A stretch of 64,000 bases of DNA from Escherichia coli 042 (GCF_000027125.1 NC_017626.1); one strand, 5' to 3'. Counted from the first letter of the stretch, positions 7,086 to 60,478 are shown. The notes: generated by a model not told the origin, from the sequence alone. Translations and numbers: made by a program.

Positions 7086-8342
7086 TCACTGAAAAGGCCA
7101 TGAGCTGGAGGAAAACGATCTGTCCAGAAAGTCTATCGGTTCCTCTCTTATCGCCTCATTGTAATAATCGTTATTACAGTAAGTATTGTTTATTTCATCT
7201 AATGTCATATTTTTAATTTTTATATTCATCTGATTTACAACTTCTTCTGTTTTATAAGTGTGTATATTATATGGGGTATATGCTTCTTTAATAGTATAGT
7301 GAAACAATTCGTTATCCACATCTACTCCGTCAGAGTGAACTTCAAATGCACCAGGCGAAAGAATTGCCAGGCCAGTATTAAGCTTAAGTGCTGGGGAAAA
7401 TAAATTAAATAACATGAGCTGGATAGTAGGGCAATTGTTCTTCCCAGAAACATTTAAAAAATTTAAGTTTTTGCTCTGTTTTATTATGGGGAATAAAGTT
7501 CCAATATCGGACGTATTCTTAGTGTCAATGCGGGTTATTTTATTATTGTCCAGCCTTAAACTTTTGATAGATGAAAGATAAGTCAGGAAATGAAGGTTTA
7601 TTTTTTCCAACTGATTGTTCGCAGCGTTTAATGTCTGAATATTGCAGAAGTTGCTAAAGAATATTTTAATTTCAGAAAGCAAGTTGTTGTTGATAAGTAA
7701 CGTATTCAAGTTGGGAAAAAAGGTATTATGTAAACTTGTTAGTTTATTATGGGATAGATCCAGAAGTAAGAGTTCATCTTTATTTCCTGCAACAATATCA
7801 GTTAATTGATTGTGGCTGAGATTCAGGTACTGCAGCCTTTCGCAACATTCTAATTGCACAAACTCTAGTTGATTATGTGCCGCACTAAAATAAGTAATTG
7901 ATGAAAGCCTATCTATATCAATATTTCTGAGAGAATTATTATTCATAGATATATGTGTAATGCTTACATTTCTACCTTGAGGAAAATTTATTGACTCAAG
8001 AGCATTACTATTCAGACTAAGGTTGATGAGTCTATCGTAGGTGGTTGCATCAAAATGTTTGAGTTGGTTCTCATCAAGATTGATAGAGGTGAAGTTTTGC
8101 AGTCCTGGTGGTTGAGTAGTTAAATTAAGCCCTGATAAATCAATATTATTCTGTTTCGACAAAAAAGCACAATTTATCCTTTTAGCGGCTTCGTTTCGGC
8201 ATTCCGGACGATGGATTTCACCTGTAAGTATGCGTTCTGCTTTCCATTGATTTAATTCGAGCATCCAGTTAAGTTCATTTTTTTCTGGATGTTGCTGTAT
8301 GGATTGTGGATTTATTTTATTAAATATTGAAGGGAATTTCAT
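7086..8342 (-). CDS. Leucine-rich repeat protein (YopM/IpaH-like N-terminal region plus about 10 LRRs, no recognisable catalytic domain)
   Basis: Track ORF begins at GTG 8381; preferred start is ATG 8340-8342 (MKFPSIFNKI) preceded by GGAG. Tandem ~22-residue LxxLxLxxNxL repeats; very AT-rich coding sequence. Occupies the yddJ/yddK position of K-12. Confidence 0.8.
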   Translation of the reverse strand: MKFPSIFNKINPQSIQQHPEKNELNWMLELNQWKAERILTGEIHRPECRNEAAKRINCAFLSKQNNIDLSGLNLTTQPPGLQNFTSINLDENQLKHFDATTYDRLINLSLNSNALESINFPQGRNVSITHISMNNNSLRNIDIDRLSSITYFSAAHNQLEFVQLECCERLQYLNLSHNQLTDIVAGNKDELLLLDLSHNKLTSLHNTFFPNLNTLLINNNLLSEIKIFFSNFCNIQTLNAANNQLEKINLHFLTYLSSIKSLRLDNNKITRIDTKNTSDIGTLFPIIKQSKNLNFLNVSGKNNCPTIQLMLFNLFSPALKLNTGLAILSPGAFEVHSDGVDVDNELFHYTIKEAYTPYNIHTYKTEEVVNQMNIKIKNMTLDEINNTYCNNDYYNEAIREEPIDFLDRSFSSSSWPFQ

Positions 8343-37199: not shown

Positions 37200-37461
37200 T
37201 GTTATTTATCGTGAGATATTATGCGAATAATGTTTTTTCATTGAAAATCAATACATTATTGAATTATTGGGTGGTAGCAAGGTGTTTTGTGTTGTTATTT
37301 TTATGCACTTTCTACGCCTCCTGAATTATCACGTAAAAATCAGACCTTAAAATATCACTATTAGTACTTGGTTATTATTTTGAACGCATTTATAAAATTA
37401 TTACATAAAAATAGCGAATATTGATAAAATCCCCGCCAACGATGTGTTGACGGGGCTGTTA

Positions 37462-40245
37462 TTATTTTGGCAATAATACTCCGGTATAGGTATTCACCGG
37501 ATGAGAAAGATATTGTTTAACGGCAGTGTTAACATTCTCTACCGTCATTTGTTTCAATAATTGCTCCTGCTCAGTCCATGCTGCAGGATCGTCATATTGA
37601 ATAAGACTATTTACAATGGTGTTCGCTAATTGTTGAACGCTACGCTGTTGGATATCGAGGCTGCGCTGAACGTTTTGCTGGTATTCGTTCAGTTCTTGCT
37701 CACTGATCCCTTTAGCCAGACGCTTAACCATCACTTCATTCGCTAACGTTAACAGTTCATCATGTCGTTCCGGTTGACAAGTAAAAGCCAGCAAATGACT
37801 GATATCTTTGGCCTGAGGATCAACCGAGAGGCGAGAAGAAACGCTGTATGCCCCAGAGGCCTGTTCACGAATATTAACGCGTAGATCTTTTGCCAGTGCG
37901 ACGTTAAAAGCATCGAGCGCCATACGCGTCTCCAGATTAACCGGTGTCCGGGAATCATAACGCTTCCACTGTGAAACCTGTGCCACAGGTTCATTTTGTT
38001 CTTTTACAGTAACCGATGCGTTGTCCGTCGCGCGAGTTAATGGTTTACCTGCGGCTAATGGCGAATCAGAGTGTTTGATTGATCCTAAGTAAAGCGTAAT
38101 TAACGGCAGGAGTTTGTCTTCTGCGACATTACCGACAATGACAAACGTGATATCCGCTGGAGATGAAAACAACTGGCGATCGGCAGCCAGCGCATCTGCG
38201 GCAGTAAACTGTGCAATCTGATTTTCTTGCAGTAATTTCGTGCGGTCATCAGCATAGCGCGTCTCATACATCTGCTGGGCGAATTTCTCCGCTGGACGCT
38301 GGTCGAGCGTTTTCAACGCCTGAATTTGAGCATTTTGTAGCGATGCCCAAATATTATCGTTAATCGTGCTGTGGGTGATTCGCTGGTTAATCAACTGGAA
38401 ACCAGGTTCAGGGTTATTAGTCCGCGCGCTAACAGAGAGCAATGTATTCATGCCACTGACTTTACTGCTCAAGGTTACCGAGTTTTCCGCACTCCAGCGT
38501 TTCAGGCTGGAAGAGGAGAGTTCACCAACGCCGCTTCCGCTTACTGCTTTATTTGCCAGCGCGATAAGTGATTTTTGCTGCGCAGGGAAACTTAAATCGC
38601 CTTTATAAGATACGGCAGTAATTTGTAGCTTTTGCTCTTCACCCGCGGATTTTGCCAGAATAACCCTGGCACCATTGGAAAGTGTTAATGATGTCAGATT
38701 CTCAGCCAGCGTTTCTTTGCTGCTAATTTCCGCCTGTGGGTCAGCGTCTACTGTTAACGATAAATTTCTGCCTGGGAAGATGTAAGCCGCCAGCTTTTTG
38801 TTGGCGTACTCTTTTTCCAGCGCCAGGATAGCCGCAGGAGACAATGCTTTTTTGGCAGCAACCTCATTGTTTACCATTTGCTCCCAAAATGCATCCTGGT
38901 TCTTTCTTAACTGCTGCCATTTTTCCGCCAGACTTTGCACGGTAATTTGCTGCCACAGACGTTTCGAAAGTTGATATGTCTCTTCCGGCGACAAGAACGG
39001 CGTATTATTTAATGAGCTGGATGCCAGGCGACTGGTCAGCATACGTAAATCACGTTCAGCTTGCTGATCAACCGCATTTTTCAGCCAGGTGAGGCGGGTA
39101 GATTTGACATCATCGAGTTCTTCAGCAGAAAAACCATGCTGATCAATAGTTGCCAACTCTGCCATTAATGCATTCGCAGCATCCTGCATATTATCGTCTC
39201 GTGCATTTACACGGAAAAACAGCGACTGATAATCGGGTGCAATTTTAACGCTGCGCGCAGTGCCGCCAGAAATAGTCTTCAACTCGCCCGACTGTATGCG
39301 TTCCTGCAGACGCTGATTGAACAGCTGAACCAACATGCTCCATTCAGCTTGTTCGATAAAGCTTTGCTCATCGCTCACTTGCACCATTGGCAGGCGATAA
39401 TAGAGTGCGATGCCGTTCACCCGGTTTTCTTTATCATTAATGATATTAAAGCGCAGGTGGTTTTCGGCTTTTGTCGGCCAGACGCGATTTTCAGCTGCTT
39501 TGTTAGCCGGAAGCTTACTTAAATTATCCTTAATCAGCGCCAGCGCTTCTTTACTGTCGATATCGCCGACCACGATAAAGGTCATATTATTTGGTTGATA
39601 CCAGCGTTGATAAAATTGGCGCAATTGTGCCGGTGTGACCGTAGCGACAGTATCCATCACGCCGATAGGTTCACGGTCTAAATTACGGGTATTTGCCAGC
39701 AGGAAAGGGCGGCGCGCCTGAGAGGTGCGCCATTTCGCATCCTGATGGGCACGCCATTCCTCAGTAATTACGCCGCGTTCAGCGTCTACTTCGAGTTTTT
39801 CAAAGCTTGCGGCATTACTCCATTCACTAAAGATTGCCATCACTTGTTGCAGATTTTGTTTCTGCGTAGTCGGCAAACTCACCTGATACACCGTTTCGTC
39901 ATAGCTGGTATAGGCATTAACATCGCGACCAAAACGCAGGCCCATTGACTCAAATGTTTCGATGACTTTATTACCCGGCCATGTTTTTGTGCCGTTAAAC
40001 ATCATATGTTCTACAAAATGAGCCACGCCGCGCTCATTGTCCTCTTCCTGCAATGAACCGGTATGAATTTGCAGCCATAAATTTACCTGATCCTTTGGTT
40101 GAGCATGCGGATAAATCATATATCGCAAGCCATTGTCCAGTTGCCCGGTAATTAACTTTTCATCCTGCGGTAAGGCGGCGGCAATCAGTCGCCCGGGGAG
40201 CAACAGAGTTGCCACTAACGTCAGTAAGAAACAGAGGTTTCTCAT
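37462..40245 (-). CDS. pqqL: Periplasmic M16-family zinc protease
   Basis: Start at ATG 40243-40245 (MRNLCFLLTLVATLLLPGRLIAA, signal peptide) with GGAGA RBS; HFVEHMMF inverzincin motif (HxxEH). Confidence 0.9.
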   Translation of the reverse strand: MRNLCFLLTLVATLLLPGRLIAAALPQDEKLITGQLDNGLRYMIYPHAQPKDQVNLWLQIHTGSLQEEDNERGVAHFVEHMMFNGTKTWPGNKVIETFESMGLRFGRDVNAYTSYDETVYQVSLPTTQKQNLQQVMAIFSEWSNAASFEKLEVDAERGVITEEWRAHQDAKWRTSQARRPFLLANTRNLDREPIGVMDTVATVTPAQLRQFYQRWYQPNNMTFIVVGDIDSKEALALIKDNLSKLPANKAAENRVWPTKAENHLRFNIINDKENRVNGIALYYRLPMVQVSDEQSFIEQAEWSMLVQLFNQRLQERIQSGELKTISGGTARSVKIAPDYQSLFFRVNARDDNMQDAANALMAELATIDQHGFSAEELDDVKSTRLTWLKNAVDQQAERDLRMLTSRLASSSLNNTPFLSPEETYQLSKRLWQQITVQSLAEKWQQLRKNQDAFWEQMVNNEVAAKKALSPAAILALEKEYANKKLAAYIFPGRNLSLTVDADPQAEISSKETLAENLTSLTLSNGARVILAKSAGEEQKLQITAVSYKGDLSFPAQQKSLIALANKAVSGSGVGELSSSSLKRWSAENSVTLSSKVSGMNTLLSVSARTNNPEPGFQLINQRITHSTINDNIWASLQNAQIQALKTLDQRPAEKFAQQMYETRYADDRTKLLQENQIAQFTAADALAADRQLFSSPADITFVIVGNVAEDKLLPLITLYLGSIKHSDSPLAAGKPLTRATDNASVTVKEQNEPVAQVSQWKRYDSRTPVNLETRMALDAFNVALAKDLRVNIREQASGAYSVSSRLSVDPQAKDISHLLAFTCQPERHDELLTLANEVMVKRLAKGISEQELNEYQQNVQRSLDIQQRSVQQLANTIVNSLIQYDDPAAWTEQEQLLKQMTVENVNTAVKQYLSHPVNTYTGVLLPK

Positions 40246-40301
40246 AATTATCTCCATGCGAAAACCGGGCAAATTTACCCGGTTAAGTAAAATCCGAACT
40301 A

Positions 40302-42674
40302 TTAAAATTTCATGCTGACATCAAGCCAGAAAGTACGGCCACTGGCGTAGGTCGCCACACCGGTATTCGTTGTATCAACCGCGGTTTTGCTATCCAGTAC
40401 ATTGAGAATATCGGCACTGATCGTCAGGTTTTGTTGTTTCAGAAATTGTGGCGTCCAGGACAAGCGGGTGTCCCAGGTCAGGCTGCTATCCAGTTTTTCG
40501 TCAACATACTGCTTGTAATCTGAATATTCGCTGATGTATTGCGCATTCGTCTTACCCAGGATAATGCGAGCTTTACGCGCTTCTTGCCAGGTCAGCGTAT
40601 TCGCCCACACCAACCCGCTCGGTTGATGCGTGAAATCCATGTTTAAGGAGATCTTTAGTGGATTATTAAAATCCGCCACTGGAACGCTATCGTAAGAGAC
40701 CAGATTACCGTTATAAACCACCCGGTTATCACCGGTATTGCTCTCCTCATAACCATTGTTTAACGACAAGTTGCCCTTGCTCTTGATATAGCTAAAGACA
40801 ATTTGCGGGTTAATATCTACCTGGCTGATATGCAGGGGTTCGGCCAGTTCAAAACTGAGGTTGAACGAATGCGTTTTGGTTTTGCCGTCGTTGTTATATT
40901 CAGTAATGGTGGTTTTAGTCGCGCTGTCGGTACGACTGCTTTTGCTGATTTGATCATGCGCTTCACGGTAAACATAGTTTGCGCGCGCAATAACGTTCTT
41001 ACCGATTTTTTGCTGCAATCCCATTGCCAGTTCATCGTTATAAGGCGTTTTCAAATCCTGATAACGCGTCAGGGTTTTATTGCCTGATACCGATTCCGTC
41101 CAGCTATTGCGGATATCACGTAATCCCATATCAAGAATATTCCCGCCATAGTAACGGTTATAACCGGCGGTAATCATTGAGGTTTGATCAGCAAAAATAT
41201 CCCATTCCGTCATAAAGCGCGGGGAGATATTGTGGTTTGACAGATAGTTGTCATAGTCATACCGCACGCCGGGCATTAATGACACATTACGCCAGCTAAT
41301 ACGATCCGCCATATACAGCGTGTAGTTGTCAATTCCCAGGCTGCCTTTACCTTTATGGTAAATGGTATGGTTAGTTTTCTTTCCGGCAGCATTAATCACA
41401 TAGGATTCAGACTGGTTATGGCGTTCAGTCCATGCATCGGAATAGATGTATTCCGCGCCGAAGTAGGGTTGATGCGAAACATTACCCACGGTGAATTTTT
41501 GCCAGTCCAGGCGTGTTTTGAAGGTGTAATTATCTACAGCCTGGGAAATGTGTCCTAATCCGCCACGGGTGCAACGCCCTGTAATATCACCATATGTACA
41601 TGAAAGTTCGGTGTACCAGATGTCATGATCGTGACGGGTATAATCACTAATATGATCCCAACCAACGGTGGTACGTAGTTTGGCCCATGCGAGCTGCGTA
41701 TCCATATCCCATGCCAGACCGTAGGATTTATTACCCATTTCGCGATCAGACTGCGGGAAGGTGCTGGTATTATAATCACGACTGGAGCCGGTATATTTTA
41801 ATGTTAAATCGTGGGTAAAGCGGTCGCTGGCAAACCAGGTAAATTTGCTCACTGCGGTATCGATAACGTTTTTATACTGTGCCCGACCGGCGACAATGCC
41901 GTCATTCGAAACATAATCCGCGCGGGTGATATCAGACTGGCGGCGCGATAAACCGGCGGTAACGCCGAAGTTATCAGCGAGTTCCTGATTAAACGCCAAA
42001 GTATAAAAGTTCTTTTTAAAATCTGGAGAGTAATAAGTACTTCCTGAAGAACCTTGATTAAATGCGCTCTTGTTATTCTCATCGATATGCGATGTTAACC
42101 AGTCCGAACGCGTAGTGCGATAACCCAGTTCCACGCTGCTATCATCAGCATTGAAGCGTTTGATCTTTGCATCAATTACCCCGCCATTGAAGCGACCAAA
42201 TTCAACCGGCACAAAACTGTCATAAAGCGTCACATTGTCCAGTAAGCTGACATCTAGATAATACCCCTGTGACATCCCGCTAATATTGGTTGCACTACTG
42301 GCATCGGACTCATTCGCTGGGTTCAGGTTATTAGTTGCACTAATACCATCAATCAAATAGGCATTCTGGTAGGGCGACGCACCGTGAATAGAGATTTTCT
42401 CCGGGCGAATATCTCCCTGGTTCAACGAGGTACTTTGCGTTGAATCCATGCGCACAGCAGGGTTGGTTCTCAGCAGATCGCTGATATTGCCATTCCCGGT
42501 CGGTAAACGCTCGATGCTTTCACTGGTGTAATGCGTATTGCCGTTTACGGGTACAGGGACAGGAGCATAGACCGTCATCTCTTCAAAAACATGCATGTAC
42601 ATGTTTTTGTCATCGACGGCCTGCGCCACATCAGCGCCACATAAAATGACGCCAGGAATAAGAACTCGCTTCAT
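40302..42674 (-). CDS. yddB: TonB-dependent outer-membrane receptor-like protein
   Basis: 790 aa with signal peptide, plug and beta-barrel character, C-terminal aromatic (…LDVSMKF). Confidence 0.9.
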   Translation of the reverse strand: MKRVLIPGVILCGADVAQAVDDKNMYMHVFEEMTVYAPVPVPVNGNTHYTSESIERLPTGNGNISDLLRTNPAVRMDSTQSTSLNQGDIRPEKISIHGASPYQNAYLIDGISATNNLNPANESDASSATNISGMSQGYYLDVSLLDNVTLYDSFVPVEFGRFNGGVIDAKIKRFNADDSSVELGYRTTRSDWLTSHIDENNKSAFNQGSSGSTYYSPDFKKNFYTLAFNQELADNFGVTAGLSRRQSDITRADYVSNDGIVAGRAQYKNVIDTAVSKFTWFASDRFTHDLTLKYTGSSRDYNTSTFPQSDREMGNKSYGLAWDMDTQLAWAKLRTTVGWDHISDYTRHDHDIWYTELSCTYGDITGRCTRGGLGHISQAVDNYTFKTRLDWQKFTVGNVSHQPYFGAEYIYSDAWTERHNQSESYVINAAGKKTNHTIYHKGKGSLGIDNYTLYMADRISWRNVSLMPGVRYDYDNYLSNHNISPRFMTEWDIFADQTSMITAGYNRYYGGNILDMGLRDIRNSWTESVSGNKTLTRYQDLKTPYNDELAMGLQQKIGKNVIARANYVYREAHDQISKSSRTDSATKTTITEYNNDGKTKTHSFNLSFELAEPLHISQVDINPQIVFSYIKSKGNLSLNNGYEESNTGDNRVVYNGNLVSYDSVPVADFNNPLKISLNMDFTHQPSGLVWANTLTWQEARKARIILGKTNAQYISEYSDYKQYVDEKLDSSLTWDTRLSWTPQFLKQQNLTISADILNVLDSKTAVDTTNTGVATYASGRTFWLDVSMKF

Positions 42675-42702
42675 TTATTTTTATCTCCGTACAGCAGGGC
42701 TT

Positions 42703-44397
42703 TTATTGTTTTTTTAAAACCGCGCTAATGTCACAAATATCATCGGCCAGGTTCCAGACACCGGGTTGATGTGTAACCATAATGACGCCGCTTGAGGGTA
42801 GTTTTTCACGCACTAAACGCAGTAAGCGGATAGCCTCTTGTTCCTCAAAATGAGAGGTAGTTTCGTCAAGAAATATCCATTTCGGACGTCGTAAAATTAA
42901 TCGTGCCAGCGCGATACGTTGTTTTTCGCCGCTGGAAAGAATATCGCCCCAGCGATCGTGGTCATGAATACGCGCAGCCAATTTCCCCAGACCAACCTGA
43001 TGCAGTACTTCGCTCAACGATTTATCGTCTACGGACAGGGGAAGTGCTTTACAAATTATCTCTTTCAGTAAGCCGGTTTTGATTAACGGTGTTTGTGACA
43101 CATACCAACTGTCAGCAGGAGAAGAAATATCACCTTTAAACCACGGCCAGCAGTGGGATAATGTTTTAAGCAGTGTGGTTTTTCCCGCACCTGAGTAACC
43201 TTTCAGTAATAGCCATTTGCCTGGCGAAACATGAAAGTTTAGGTTCTCTAATATGATCTTATTATCAGGAGTACGAATACTCGCGTCAGCCACTTGTACC
43301 GCATGTTGGCAATTTTTAGGCTTATTCGTAGGGCGCTGTTCGGTGAGTTGATGGAACTCATACAAGCGATCGATAACCGCAGCCAGTTCAGCAAGTTCAT
43401 CATATTTATAAATAAACCAGCTTAAATTGTTCGATACCAGCATAAATGCCTGGCGCGATTTCATCAGTCCGCCCAGATTGATCTGTCCGCTAATAAACTG
43501 CGGCAATAACAGAAAGTAGGGAAGAACGCTAAGCGAGCGCGAATAAATATTCTGCCAGTAATCAAGCCACCGCTGACGATTCATTAAACGATGCCAGTTA
43601 TCTTTAATGGTATGAAAATTGTCGCTCAACTCCTGGCGTTGTAGAGACTCAGCATTGCTTAGCGCAATCAGTTCAGCCTGCTTATTATGCTGCACAAGAT
43701 TAGTTCGAAATGTCGCTTCGCTACGTTGTTTTTCCACATTAAGCGGACGAATACGTTTACCAACCTTATGAGTAAATAAAGTTCCACCGATCACAATGAG
43801 CACGACGGTATAGACCATATACCCCTGGATATTCCATTCTGTTCCACCAACAGTGAATGAGAGCGTACCCGCGCTTTGCCAAAGAATAACGGTAAAGGTG
43901 ATCAACATGCTAAGTGACTGGATGAAGCCAAATGAAAGACTGAGCGTTTTGCTGATCAGTAAGAGAATGTCTTCAGCGATACGTTGGTCAGGGTTATCTG
44001 TATTTTTATGCTCACCGTAGATCTGCGTGAAGTAGTAGTTTTTATCTGCAAACCAGCGATTAAGGTAGTAATCTGTTAACCATTCGCGCCAGCGAATAGT
44101 CAGTAGTTTAATTAACCATGTTTTGTTTACGGATATTAATACAAAGATCCCCAGCAGGGCAGGGAACCAAAGGACAAGCTGCCAAAGCTTATCGGTTTCT
44201 TTCTGGCTTAGCGCATTGAAAAAATCATTATTCCAGTCGTTTAACCAGACCTGAATTTTAACCACGCCAAGGATCATGGCGAGGATAATAATGATTAACA
44301 GCACTGAAGTTTTATTATTCTTACGCAGCCAAAAGGGCTTCAGCAGACAGAGATACTTTGCTATCAACATACGAAACGTAATGGGAATGGTTATCAT
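42703..44397 (-). CDS. yddA: Inner-membrane ABC transporter (fused TMD-NBD)
   Basis: 564 aa; N-terminal TM helices, C-terminal NBD with Walker A GYSGAGKTT and signature SSGEKQR; first gene of the yddA-yddB-pqqL cluster. Confidence 0.9.
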   Translation of the reverse strand: MITIPITFRMLIAKYLCLLKPFWLRKNNKTSVLLIIIILAMILGVVKIQVWLNDWNNDFFNALSQKETDKLWQLVLWFPALLGIFVLISVNKTWLIKLLTIRWREWLTDYYLNRWFADKNYYFTQIYGEHKNTDNPDQRIAEDILLLISKTLSLSFGFIQSLSMLITFTVILWQSAGTLSFTVGGTEWNIQGYMVYTVVLIVIGGTLFTHKVGKRIRPLNVEKQRSEATFRTNLVQHNKQAELIALSNAESLQRQELSDNFHTIKDNWHRLMNRQRWLDYWQNIYSRSLSVLPYFLLLPQFISGQINLGGLMKSRQAFMLVSNNLSWFIYKYDELAELAAVIDRLYEFHQLTEQRPTNKPKNCQHAVQVADASIRTPDNKIILENLNFHVSPGKWLLLKGYSGAGKTTLLKTLSHCWPWFKGDISSPADSWYVSQTPLIKTGLLKEIICKALPLSVDDKSLSEVLHQVGLGKLAARIHDHDRWGDILSSGEKQRIALARLILRRPKWIFLDETTSHFEEQEAIRLLRLVREKLPSSGVIMVTHQPGVWNLADDICDISAVLKKQ

Positions 44398-44420
44398 TAG
44401 CGAAAATTGATTGTGCCATC

Positions 44421-44447
44421 CAATGATTATCTATGGCAATGATTTAC
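44421..44447. promoter_or_regulatory. Candidate Fur box upstream of yddA
   Basis: CAATGATTATCTATGGCAATGATTTAC contains AATGATTATC, 9/10 to the Fur hexamer-repeat core; within 50 bp of the yddA start. Confidence 0.35.
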
Positions 44448-44516
44448 TGATGAAATTTATTTAAGTGTCATTTAACATTTTGAAATATAAAGAAATTTTT
44501 TATTTTCAATGGTTAC

Positions 44517-44538
44517 GATTATGCTATTGATAATCAAG
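44517..44538. promoter_or_regulatory. Second candidate Fur box upstream of yddA
   Basis: GATTATGCTATTGATAATCAAG contains TGATAATCA, matching the Fur core. Confidence 0.3.
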
Positions 44539-44687
44539 GGTATTGCTAATGCCCTGACGCATGCCACGTAAGCCAGAATTTTCGCAAGGGAAGATGATGA
44601 TGACGAAACACCCAACAGGAATTTATGTCGGGTGCTTTGTTAAGGTCATAAGACGGAGGCTAAGACTGGAGCAAAGAAGGAGCGTTA

Positions 44688-45845
44688 TTAATTATTCTCC
44701 ATTTGTTTTGCAACATCCATAATGTGGTAAAGCGGTACTCTGTTCTTGGCTAACTCCACCATGGCGTTCATATAAGGTACCATGGTTGAAAAAAGGATTT
44801 TATAACCTTCGCAAAAATAGGAAACAGTCTCATTGTTTACTTTAGTAATACGATGCTTAGGGCAACCGCCATTGCAGATAGGTTTATATGCACATTGCTG
44901 ACATTTCGCTGAAATCCGTTTTTTTTGCGCTGTCAGTTGTACACTGTTCATCGTTTTAAGTTCAGATTTATTAATGTTTCCAATTTTGTACTGTGGATAG
45001 ACAAAATGGTCGCATTCGTAAATGTCTCCATTACTTTCAACAACCAGATTATCCTTGCAGGACTCCTGGAAAATACAACTGGTATGCCCATTCCCCAAAA
45101 AACGGCTGACAAAACTTTCAAACTGACGGATGAAAATTTCACCCACATCGTTTTTAACCCATTGCATAAAAATGGTCGACATAAACTTGCCATAAGCCGT
45201 AGGAGGCACAGAAAAATCAATGATACGGAATGTGTTCTCACTATGACCACTGAAATCAATATTCGGCGTCCCGGTTTCGAGCAATTCGATAAATTGCATA
45301 TGTTTACTGCCGATAGATTTTAAAAAATGATAAACCTCAAGAGGGTAATGGACATTAACGTTATTAATGACGGTTAACGTATTAAACTCTACTTGATATG
45401 ATTTCAGACGCTCGATGGCTGCTATCACTTTTGCAAAAGTACCGTTACCAGAATTACTGCGTCTGTAACGGTCATGTAGCTCCTGGGGTCCATCGATCGA
45501 GATACCAACCAGAAACTCATGTTCTTTGAGAAAGGCACACCATTCATTATTCAATAAAATGCCATTCGTTTGTAATGCATTAAAAATACGTTTTTGGCCT
45601 GCATAGCGTTGTTGATAGTGAATAACTTTACGGAAAAAATCCAGACCAGCCAGAGTGGGTTCACCGCCTTGCCACGTAAAATAGACCTGATTGCCAGACG
45701 CTGCGATATATTGTTTGATGAACTCTTTCAGAGTGCTGTCATCCATCCATTTTTCATGAGTAAACTGCGACTCTTTTTCAAGGTAAAAACAGTAATCACA
45801 TTTGAGATTACATTGAAAACTGGAGGGCTTGGCTGTAACGTGCAT
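44688..45845 (-). CDS. ydeM: Radical-SAM anaerobic sulfatase-maturating enzyme homologue
   Basis: Start at ATG 45843-45845 ([21 protein letters not shown]); CxxxCxxC radical-SAM cluster plus C-terminal Cys-rich SPASM-like region. Confidence 0.9.
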
Positions 45846-59211: not shown

Positions 59212-60478
59212 TTACTTAATACCGTATTCTCGGCTTAACCGGCCGTGCAACCTCAACACATTGGTTTCAACTGCCGTCACCACGTTCTCCGGAAAATCTG
59301 TCGGTAATGAAGTCTTCACGTTATCCAGTGCTGCCGGAATCATTCTGGCAAAGTCACTCAGGATTTCATGCATCTGCACTTCCGGAAATTTCAGCAACTT
59401 TGCTGTCGCCAGAAAATGTCGCGGATAAATTTTATCGATTGCCGTTTTTTTGCCTTTGGATGCGTTAAGCCCCATTGCCAGTTTGAGATCGCTGATGTGT
59501 ATTCCTGCGCCACCCAATACCGGAAATGCTGAAATGATGTCGTAAAATGGCGTGAGTCGATAACTGCCGCCAGCCTGAATAAATACGGAGAAGTTTTTTG
59601 CATGGCCATCCGTTGCGCCAATCAACCACTGGAACACCTGAAACTTCATAAAATCATAGCGATCTTTCAGCGCCTCGCTGGACCCCATCAAAAAAGCCAT
59701 GATCCGCGCGATGCCTGGGCCTCCATCTGATTCATATTTCACCGATGAAGTTAAACCGAATGTCTGACACATATCCTCCTGTGGCAAGCGAAGTAAAACC
59801 GTTCGCTCAGCATTCCAACGCCTGTCAAAACGTTCGACCGCTAACGCGCGCACATTCCCCGCTTTAATGATTTCTGCGTCCGGCACATTCAACCCAAGTT
59901 CTTTCGCCAGCAGCAGACAGTAATACTCATTATCAACGCTTTGGCTGAGATCGAGCGTCGCATTGGGCTGCCTGATTTCGCCAATCGGTAATTTAATGAT
60001 GTGCGTCGTCGGCGTTATTCCTTTCGGAATGCACCAGTCATTGCCTATTCTGAGCAGCGCTGTCTTCTCCTGCGCGCCAGCAACCGAGATGCGAAAGTCA
60101 TTTTCTTCTCTAATCATGCCCAGAGGGATATCTGCTTTATAAGCCGTTAATACTTCTTCAAGTCTGGCTTCAGTAAGCTTTTCCCATGCCATTATCGGAT
60201 GCGTTACGGTTTCGTCTTCGGGTATTAACGTCACGGCACCAACGCTGTCTCGCCCTATTTCTGACAATAAATCAAACGGTTGTCTGGATTTGGCATGATA
60301 ACGTTTAACGATCCGGTCACGTACAATCGGGCTATCGGGTAACAGATTATCGAAGAAGTTAAATACGGCATCAGAGGTGATATTCCCCCTCTGCAATGGC
60401 AGCGAAAGTGACAACGGTCTGGCATAACGGCTGGCTAACCACTCCGGTGCATACTTAAAGGTGTGCGCGCCGTTGGCT
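59212..60478 (-). pseudogene. hipA: hipA toxin kinase remnant, 5'-truncated, no hipB
   Basis: HipA-type sequence from about residue 19 (LANGAHTFKYAPEWLASRYARPLSLSLPLQRGNITSDAVFNFF...) to the stop at 59212. An in-frame TGA lies three codons upstream of the first homologous codon. No hipB, promoter or RBS upstream. Confidence 0.75.

Follow-up and report, generated by a model that had tools for sequence, protein, structure and literature searches.

The DNA analysed here is a 64,000-nt stretch of Escherichia coli 042 (GCF_000027125.1 NC_017626.1), which we call the window and whose positions are used as coordinates throughout; the subject of this study is the group of three genes yddA, yddB and pqqL on its minus strand. 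Three successive minus-strand open reading frames (ORFs) were listed at 37462-40272 (936 aa, TTG start), 40302-42674 (790 aa) and 42703-44397 (564 aa). According to this list and to the PGAP annotation of a 99.4%-identical genome, their order along the minus strand is yddA, yddB, pqqL, with pqqL confined to 37462-40245. With the PGAP start of pqqL (ATG 40245), which is preceded by the Shine-Dalgarno sequence GGAG, yddA and yddB are separated by 28 bp and yddB and pqqL by 56 bp; the start given by UniProt, at 40257, would reduce the second gap to 44 bp. A Shine-Dalgarno sequence follows each of the two gaps. A megablast search of 37300-44700 against 5,426 complete E. coli genomes recovered the locus from 5,409, where it carries the annotations pqqL, yddB and yddA; the best identity was 99.4%, and that for K-12 was 97.9%. 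Downstream of the three genes lie gadB and gadC, and upstream lie ydeM and ydeN.

A sequence-only reading of the window had described these genes as a protease, a TonB-dependent receptor and an ATP-binding cassette (ABC) exporter in tight succession. Both the succession, with its gaps of 28 and 56 bp, and the protein classes agree with the ORF list, the PGAP annotation and the Pfam and PDB matches, apart from the direction of transport implied by the word exporter. The locus is the E. coli yddA-yddB-pqqL operon, repressed by Fur, and it probably belongs to the Fus-like "protease-associated import" systems. This interpretation has already been published (Grinter 2016, 2019), and the wording of the sequence-only reading, including its caveat on the substrate, restates that literature. 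Our additions are a very probable correction of the yddA start, the anatomy of the promoter and operator, a conserved yddB-pqqL hairpin and a widespread deletion of the locus.

The three proteins

The outer-membrane component, YddB, starts with a signal peptide, has the TonB box EEMTVYA at residues 31-37 and contains a Plug domain (Pfam). A phmmer search of the PDB at a threshold of E <= 1e-3 retrieved YddB itself (6OFR) and FusA (4ZGV/9RHR, 3.8e-80), and no further TonB-dependent transporter, siderophore receptors included, was found at that threshold. YddB is accordingly a transporter of the FusA clade. In the published structure, its barrel has 22 strands, and its extracellular pocket, at 27.8 x 29.2 Å, is unusually wide (Grinter 2019, PMC6793856).

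PqqL, which is encoded 56 bp downstream of yddB, is an exported, single-chain M16 protease of the FusC type. It carries Peptidase_M16 and M16_C domains (Pfam), the zinc motif HFVEH, which fits the HxxEH pattern, and the signal peptide MRNLCFLLTLVATLLLPGRLIAA. Its PDB matches are PqqL itself (6OFS, 6OFT), then 9LDY (4e-82), and then FusC over its full length (6B03, 6B05, 6BRS, ~1e-59). The entry 9LDY is a solved "Peptidase, M16 family" of 916 aa that is closer to PqqL than FusC is; no publication on it was found, and it may be another protease of the protease-associated import type. PqqL is periplasmic and cleaves F/Y-F/Y-V/A peptides, and its structure is that of a clam-shell M16 protease alternating between open and closed states (Grinter 2019, PMC6793856). 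A review of M16 proteases of December 2025 gives its substrate as not available.

In YddA, Pfam identifies SbmA_BacA and ABC_membrane_2 (scores of 5.5e-34 and 9.5e-44) together with ABC_tran (1e-18), and the classical exporter domain ABC_membrane was not found by Pfam. The Walker A motif GYSGAGKT is intact, and the signature LSSGE, the Walker B motif IFLDE and the H-loop are seen in the alignment with Rv1819c. Rv1819c (6TQE), which imports cobalamin and bleomycin in M. tuberculosis, is also the best PDB match (8e-68, residues 35-553), followed by ABCD1 and ABCD4, whereas classical exporters match YddA through the nucleotide-binding domain only. YddA is therefore a transporter of the SbmA/BacA type whose transmembrane domain is fused to an intact nucleotide-binding domain. 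The SbmA/BacA/BclA/Rv1819c lineage has the exporter fold, and its characterised members import peptides, bleomycin and cobalamin. Furthermore, the YddA of B. cepacia is needed for the uptake of ubonodin, a lasso peptide, and SbmA has been proposed to descend from a YddA-like ancestor. By analogy with these relatives, YddA is probably an importer despite its exporter fold, a direction that agrees with the logic of the operon. The label of ABC exporter in the sequence-only reading is thus probably wrong as to direction, although one paper reports efflux, to which we return below.

A single transcription unit

Reverse-transcription PCR (RT-PCR) across both gene junctions has shown one transcript, with read-through into pqqL (Subashchandrabose 2013, PMC3855560). 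In RNA-seq of a fur deletion in MG1655, the log2 changes are +3.06 for yddA, +2.95 for yddB and +2.27 for pqqL, and the flanking genes do not rise (ydeM -0.30, ydeN +0.09, gadB -0.63; PMC10164565 supplement). Because the three genes rise and their flanks do not, the Fur-responsive unit consists of exactly these three genes. The proposal that they form one unit is therefore borne out by the RT-PCR and by their joint rise in the fur mutant, and independent transcription is contradicted.

The terminator after pqqL is the sole strong intrinsic terminator within the unit. A stem of 10 bp, 7 of which are G-C, precedes AUUUUAU, and the fold of -18.9 kcal/mol (z = -5.1) was equalled by 0 of 200 shuffles. 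Terminator-like matches inside the genes were rejected as operon breaks on the grounds of their weak stems and the published RT-PCR read-through. At the other end, the hairpin past the ydeM stop codon, which includes a G-U pair in E. coli 042 and is fully Watson-Crick in K-12, shields the yddA promoter from transcription of ydeMN upstream, in keeping with the lack of a response of ydeM and ydeN to the fur deletion. A 40-codon plus-strand ORF at 44600-44722, annotated as the small protein YneP in K-12 and as a "hypothetical protein" in many genomes, also overlaps ydeM at its 3' end.

Between yddB and pqqL lies a further hairpin, with a 9-bp stem and a fold centroid of -13.8 kcal/mol. At the equivalent position in Escherichia fergusonii (L008, about 7391-7417), an 11-bp stem of different sequence is followed by UUUUGU. 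The structure resembles a terminator that leaks and looks like an attenuator or an mRNA-stabilising element and not an operon break, and this conserved hairpin may tune the expression of pqqL relative to yddA and yddB. The fold change in the fur deletion declines from yddA to pqqL.

Fur boxes and the yddA promoter

Both strands of the window were scored against the 19-bp Fur consensus GATAATGATAATCATTATC. The highest score in the 64 kb is reached, jointly with one other site, by the proximal box at the 5' end of yddA (Table 1), where 6 positions score at least 13/19 within 330 bp, compared with at most 2 elsewhere. This is the densest cluster in the window, and it exceeds chance: in 2,000 dinucleotide-preserving shuffles of 44358-44687, the probability of a maximum of at least 15/19 was 0.005 and that of at least two sites of at least 14/19 was 0.0015. 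A promoter box of this quality is what would be expected of a member of the Fur regulon. The proximal box has been published as GGGAATGGTTATCATTAG and was said to overlap the yddA start codon (PMC3855560), and it is kept at 15/19 in E. fergusonii. The other 15/19 match in the window, at 59916-59934 inside hipA, is isolated and intragenic and was taken as a chance occurrence.

Published Fur peaks obtained by chromatin immunoprecipitation with exonuclease treatment (ChIP-exo) can be placed on the window, as the yddA 5' region has no indels between K-12 and the window. For MG1655, the placement relies on an offset between genome versions 2 and 3 that we take to be 1,976 bp, and the W3110 data check this offset for the proximal-box peak. 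The W3110 peak at 1581039-1581051 (yddA start 1581056) corresponds to 44380-44392, and the MG1655 peak at 1577347-1577374 corresponds to 44378-44405, on the proximal box (PMC10164565 data). A second MG1655 peak, at 1577233-1577267, corresponds to 44264-44298 and so to the Fur-box-like site inside yddA (PMC10164565 data). The proximal box, 44383-44401, is the best-supported Fur box of the locus. We also observed that in Dataset 2 of PMC10164565 the gene and transcription-unit labels of the MG1655 sheet, whose coordinates are those of version 2, are one row off the peak coordinates, at least from P43 to P48; for example, the adhP-proximal peak carries the yddA label, and the correct yddA peaks are P46 and P47.

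The sequence-only reading had placed two Fur boxes just upstream of yddA. A cluster of Fur-box-like sequences does exist there, but the supported sites are the proximal box and the intragenic one. The two upstream look-alikes, at 44419-44437 and 44517-44535, are present but weaker, and no Fur ChIP-exo peak is reported over either of them in MG1655 or W3110 (PMC10164565). The first, which is not conserved in E. fergusonii, may lie within the proximal Fur footprint. The distal one is not alignable in E. fergusonii and sits where the intergenic region is variable, in its distal part; given this and the lack of a reported peak, it was downgraded as a second operator, and its function is doubtful. 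The strongest box overlaps the annotated start codon, so that it falls at the very edge of the interval, 44400-44560, that had been put forward for Fur binding tests. Fur-dependent regulation itself, which the sequence-only reading had proposed, is borne out by several published lines of evidence. In addition to the ChIP-exo peaks and the RNA-seq rise, Fur binding upstream was detected by ChIP together with a positive effect of RyhB (Beauchene 2015, PMC4676285), all three genes are derepressed in a fur mutant (PMC3855560), and the PqqL protein increases with bipyridine in BW25113 and CFT073 and also in urine (PMC6793856).

A promoter scan predicts for yddA a -35 element and an extended -10 element separated by a spacer of 18 nt, from which a transcription start at approximately 44401-44403 would follow. 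In E. fergusonii the flanks have diverged, yet TTGCAA, TGGCACAAT and the 15/19 Fur box directly downstream are kept. Within E. coli, the 111-bp core 44360-44470 has an identity of at least 95% in all 4,609 genomes that carry it, whereas megablast recovers the distal 130 bp from no more than 2,629 genomes, for the most part with an identity of 90-95%. The conservation of the core and the variability of the distal part indicate that the proximal promoter and box constitute the functional control region, which argues against the distal look-alike.

Start and stop codons of yddA

The annotated ATG of yddA, at 44397, is very probably 27 nt too far upstream, and comparison of the coding sequences points to ATG 44370 as the true start, which would make YddA 9 residues shorter. 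In E. fergusonii, the frame from the first ATG meets TAG at codon 7, and the gene caller uses the second ATG (MLIAKYL...). Of the differences between the two species, none is synonymous and 6 are non-synonymous in codons 1-9, compared with 23 synonymous and 3 non-synonymous ones in codons 10-66. Moreover, more distant YddA orthologues are alignable only from residue 12-18 on. With a start at 44370, the Fur box would occupy approximately +1 to +19 of the predicted transcript and would not lie on the start codon. The E. fergusonii counterpart of 44370-44397 is L008 3282-3311.

At its other end, the yddA of E. coli 042 has AAA in place of the usual TAA stop codon, which adds KKQ up to the next TAA (42703-42714). 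The yddA-yddB gap is consequently 28 bp here, compared with 37 bp in K-12 and in THO-008 (99.4% identical).

Table 1. Genes, signals and predicted elements of the yddA-yddB-pqqL locus, in window positions
Feature	Position	Strand	Evidence or remark
Intrinsic terminator ending the operon	37431-37455	-	7 nt past the pqqL stop
pqqL: periplasmic single-chain M16 zinc metalloprotease, FusC-like	37462-40245	-	Pfam; PDB 6OFS/6OFT; HFVEH motif
yddB-pqqL intergenic hairpin, AACCGGGUA-AAUU-UGCCCGGUU then UUCGC	40263-40284	-	Just upstream of the pqqL Shine-Dalgarno sequence
yddB: FusA-like TonB-dependent outer-membrane transporter, signal peptide and TonB box	40302-42674	-	Pfam Plug; PDB 6OFR
yddA: inner-membrane half-size type IV ABC transporter, SbmA/BacA/Rv1819c-like YddA family	42703-44397	-	Pfam; PDB relatives
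Fur-box-like site inside yddA	44281-44299	-	14/19; under second MG1655 Fur ChIP-exo peak
Proximal Fur box GCTAATGATAACCATTCCC	44383-44401	-	15/19; joint best match in the window
Predicted yddA extended -10, TGgCACAAT	44410-44418	-	Promoter scan; 9-mer TGGCACAAT identical in E. fergusonii
Fur-box-like site with perfect GATAATCATT core, in the -35/-10 spacer	44419-44437	-	12/19
Predicted yddA -35, TTGCCA	44434-44439	-	Promoter scan; TTGCAA in E. fergusonii
Distal Fur-box-like site GATTATCAATAGCATAATC	44517-44535	-	13-14/19
Hairpin past the ydeM stop codon	44606-44637	-	Fold -18.5 kcal/mol, z = -4.8

The module in other genera

The three genes also occur together outside Escherichia. An Orbaceae bacterium carries the module with identities of 50/45/40% for YddA/YddB/PqqL, and a metagenomic contig with the closest YddB relative outside Escherichia carries it with 53/61/46%. 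In Morganella morganii the identities are 36/30/27% and the order is transporter, ABC gene, protease. In all three, the transporter and M16 genes are accompanied by an ABC gene whose product combines the domains SbmA_BacA, ABC_membrane_2 and ABC_tran, which is indirect evidence for the FusD homology stated for yddA by Grinter 2016 (PMC5095587). Fur boxes of 16/19 lie 55-70 bp upstream of the yddA orthologue in the Orbaceae and metagenomic modules. The Morganella module is preceded by an extracytoplasmic function (ECF) sigma/FecR pair and a TonB gene; such a pairing is typical of iron-uptake loci. The recurrence of the module and of its Fur boxes indicates joint inheritance and divergence of the three genes and an iron control that is ancestral to the module. 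The genes that flank the orthologous modules in the Orbaceae bacterium, the metagenomic contig and Morganella differ between the taxa and give no hint of a substrate, in agreement with the caution of the sequence-only reading that the substrate cannot be deduced from sequence. A further YddB relative, P0013, which is 70% identical, lies at a contig end beside IS66 elements, and neither yddA nor pqqL was called in its vicinity.

Loss of the locus within E. coli

Among the 5,409 matching genomes, 806 (~15%), including those of sequence type 131 (ST131), lack most of the locus. In ST131 (NZ_CP051615.1, L002 6165-7088) and others, this is a clean deletion of ~6.3 kb that runs from the ydeM stop codon into pqqL, equivalent to about 38376-44687 of the window, and only a 918-bp 3' remnant of pqqL is left. 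A deletion in ~15% of genomes is notable given that the operon has been reported as a uropathogen fitness factor in mouse bacteraemia (PMC3855560). Scattered strains (H19, H42, H44 and H46) carry insertion sequences: IS1 between yddA and ydeM, IS3 in yddA, and IS5/ISKpn26 in pqqL. Database "fusion" proteins such as P0003-P0005, in which Plug is joined with M16_C or SbmA_BacA, look like frameshift or gene-calling artefacts of yddA-yddB-pqqL.

Proposed mechanism and alternative explanations

In the model that we favour, Fur-Fe2+ would occupy 44383-44401 when iron is plentiful, just downstream of the promoter (TTGCCA, 18 nt, TGgCACAAT), and would block transcription, joined in this by the second Fur site ~100 bp into yddA. 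On derepression, a single mRNA would extend from yddA to the terminator at 37431-37455 and would pass the leaky hairpin before pqqL. YddB would then bind a small protein and translocate it into the periplasm in a TonB-dependent manner, PqqL would engulf and cut the imported protein, and YddA, driven by ATP, would carry the freed cofactor or, more likely, a cofactor-bearing peptide fragment into the cytoplasm. The import of an iron-containing protein, as put forward in the sequence-only reading, is thus supported as the published working model for this exact locus. Publications and the tests made here establish the gene identities, the co-transcription, the binding of Fur and the derepression, the location and protease activity of PqqL, the structure of YddB and the conservation of the module; the import of a protein, its iron content and the direction and cargo of YddA are presumed elements of the model. 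The locus bears on which host or microbiota protein E. coli would import via YddB.

Several observations weigh against this model. Dipyridyl alone gave no induction in CFT073 (PMC3855560). None of the proteins offered to PqqL, namely human ferredoxins, globins and plant ferredoxin, was cleaved, and deleting yddB or pqqL left growth in iron-limited LB unimpaired (PMC6793856). The promoter and transcription start of yddA are predictions from a sequence scan. No FusB-like TonB gene adjoins the E. coli cluster, whose neighbours are gadB and ydeM, so that YddB presumably uses the housekeeping TonB; FusB belongs to the Pectobacterium prototype and is not demanded by the 2019 family definition. In addition, the system is deleted in ~15% of genomes, ST131 included, and is therefore dispensable even in successful extraintestinal pathogens. 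Finally, cells deleted for yddA, whether otherwise wild-type or also lacking acrB, have lower minimum inhibitory concentrations of fluoroquinolones, tetracyclines, rifampicin, ethidium and Hoechst 33342 (Feng 2020, PMC9728188), and they show less efflux of ethidium and norfloxacin, an activity inhibited by vanadate and reserpine but not by carbonyl cyanide m-chlorophenylhydrazone (PMC9728188).

These drug phenotypes are the basis of a different explanation, in which YddA acts in multidrug efflux to the periplasm, with YddB perhaps as the outer-membrane exit channel and PqqL as a bystander. The induction of yddA by norfloxacin (PMC9728188) and the type IV fold of YddA, which is usually called the exporter fold, also fit a pump. 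However, TonB-dependent transporters are plugged and energised importers and not exit ducts, and YddB possesses both the plug and a TonB box. In its transmembrane domain, YddA is matched by the SbmA/BacA/Rv1819c and ABCD lineage only and not by the MsbA/ABCB type, and a 2026 study lists the function of the YddA family as unknown. Efflux would also leave the Fur repression and the strict linkage with an M16 protease across genera unexplained. Because the efflux study left pqqL aside and described a two-gene operon (Feng et al. 2020, PMC9728188), and because a plugged TonB-dependent transporter was treated as an exit channel, we consider this explanation quite improbable. An older view is implied by the name of pqqL, namely that the protein is a peptidase of pyrroloquinoline quinone (PQQ) biosynthesis with unrelated neighbours. 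PqqF is also an M16 peptidase, and E. coli pqqL is reported, as cited in PMC3855560, to complement pqqE/pqqF mutants of Methylobacterium organophilum. But E. coli cannot make PQQ (PMC3855560), PqqL bears a signal peptide and resides in the periplasm (PMC6793856), and its closest characterised relative is FusC. Moreover, pqqL shares its transcript with yddA and yddB, and across genera the three genes are inherited as a set and diverge in parallel. A role in PQQ biosynthesis is effectively refuted.

A closer competitor accepts that the unit imports and processes a protein or peptide and questions only the iron: the cargo could be a nutrient peptide, a signal or another cofactor, or the unit a route for bacteriocins, and Fur would act as a cue to the niche. 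The normal growth of the deletion mutants under iron limitation (PMC6793856) would fit such a cargo, as would the behaviour of CFT073, which is unresponsive to the chelator alone and induces yddA-yddB-pqqL more than 30-fold in urine (Subashchandrabose 2013, PMC3855560). The known substrates of the YddA and SbmA families are peptides, bleomycin and cobalamin, not iron, and FusA was first found as a receptor for pectocin, a bacteriocin (PMC5095587). Against a non-iron cargo stand the recurrence of Fur boxes upstream of orthologous modules in distant taxa, the ECF sigma/FecR-type pair and TonB gene that adjoin the Morganella module, and the increase of the PqqL protein with bipyridine in BW25113 and CFT073 (PMC6793856). 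Furthermore, Fus, the sole characterised member of the family, delivers the iron of ferredoxin (PMC6793856, PMC5095587). We therefore hold a cargo other than an iron source to be unlikely and prefer the import of an iron-containing protein. Within this preferred reading, we tentatively suggest that what crosses the inner membrane might be a peptide made by PqqL with its cofactor and not free iron or a naked Fe-S cluster, since the known cargoes of the YddA lineage are peptides and bulky hydrophilic cofactors. Such a protein-to-peptide relay would not need a ferredoxin as its cargo, and it could offer an entry path to bacteriocins and peptide antibiotics.

Comparison with known systems

YddB, PqqL and YddA have been identified as homologues of FusA, FusC and FusD (Grinter 2016, PMC5095587), and a later study solved the structures of YddB and PqqL, named the protease-associated import systems and surveyed the family (Grinter 2019, PMC6793856). 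The founding member, FusABCD of Pectobacterium and Dickeya (Grinter 2016, 2018, 2019; Mosbahi 2018), resembles the E. coli locus in its wide-pocket transporter of the FusA clade, its M16 protease with HxxEH and, going by the published homology of YddA with FusD, its fused type IV ABC protein, and in having the transporter, protease and ABC genes in one iron-regulated cluster. It differs in gene order, which in E. coli is ABC gene, transporter, protease, and the identity between YddB and FusA is only ~24% (PMC6793856). Unlike Fus, the E. coli PqqL does not cut plant ferredoxin and prefers the F/Y-F/Y-V/A peptides.

The YddA of E. coli, the member that gives its family the name, is like the importers of the YddA/BclA/Rv1819c and SbmA/BacA groups in its domains and in its alignment with Rv1819c. 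It differs from the importers Rv1819c and B. cepacia YddA in that one report claims drug efflux for it, and most YddA-family transporters, unlike E. coli yddA, are without a linked TonB-dependent transporter and protease.

The fepA-fes, fhuACDB and chuA loci, which serve the classical Fur-regulated uptake of siderophores and haem in E. coli, resemble yddA-yddB-pqqL in several respects: one or more Fur boxes lie at the promoter, the outer-membrane transporter depends on TonB, a fur mutation derepresses the genes, and they belong to the Fur-2 iModulon. These loci have a periplasmic binding protein and an ABC importer built of separate subunits. Both are missing from yddA-yddB-pqqL, where a periplasmic protease and an SbmA-like half-transporter stand in their place.

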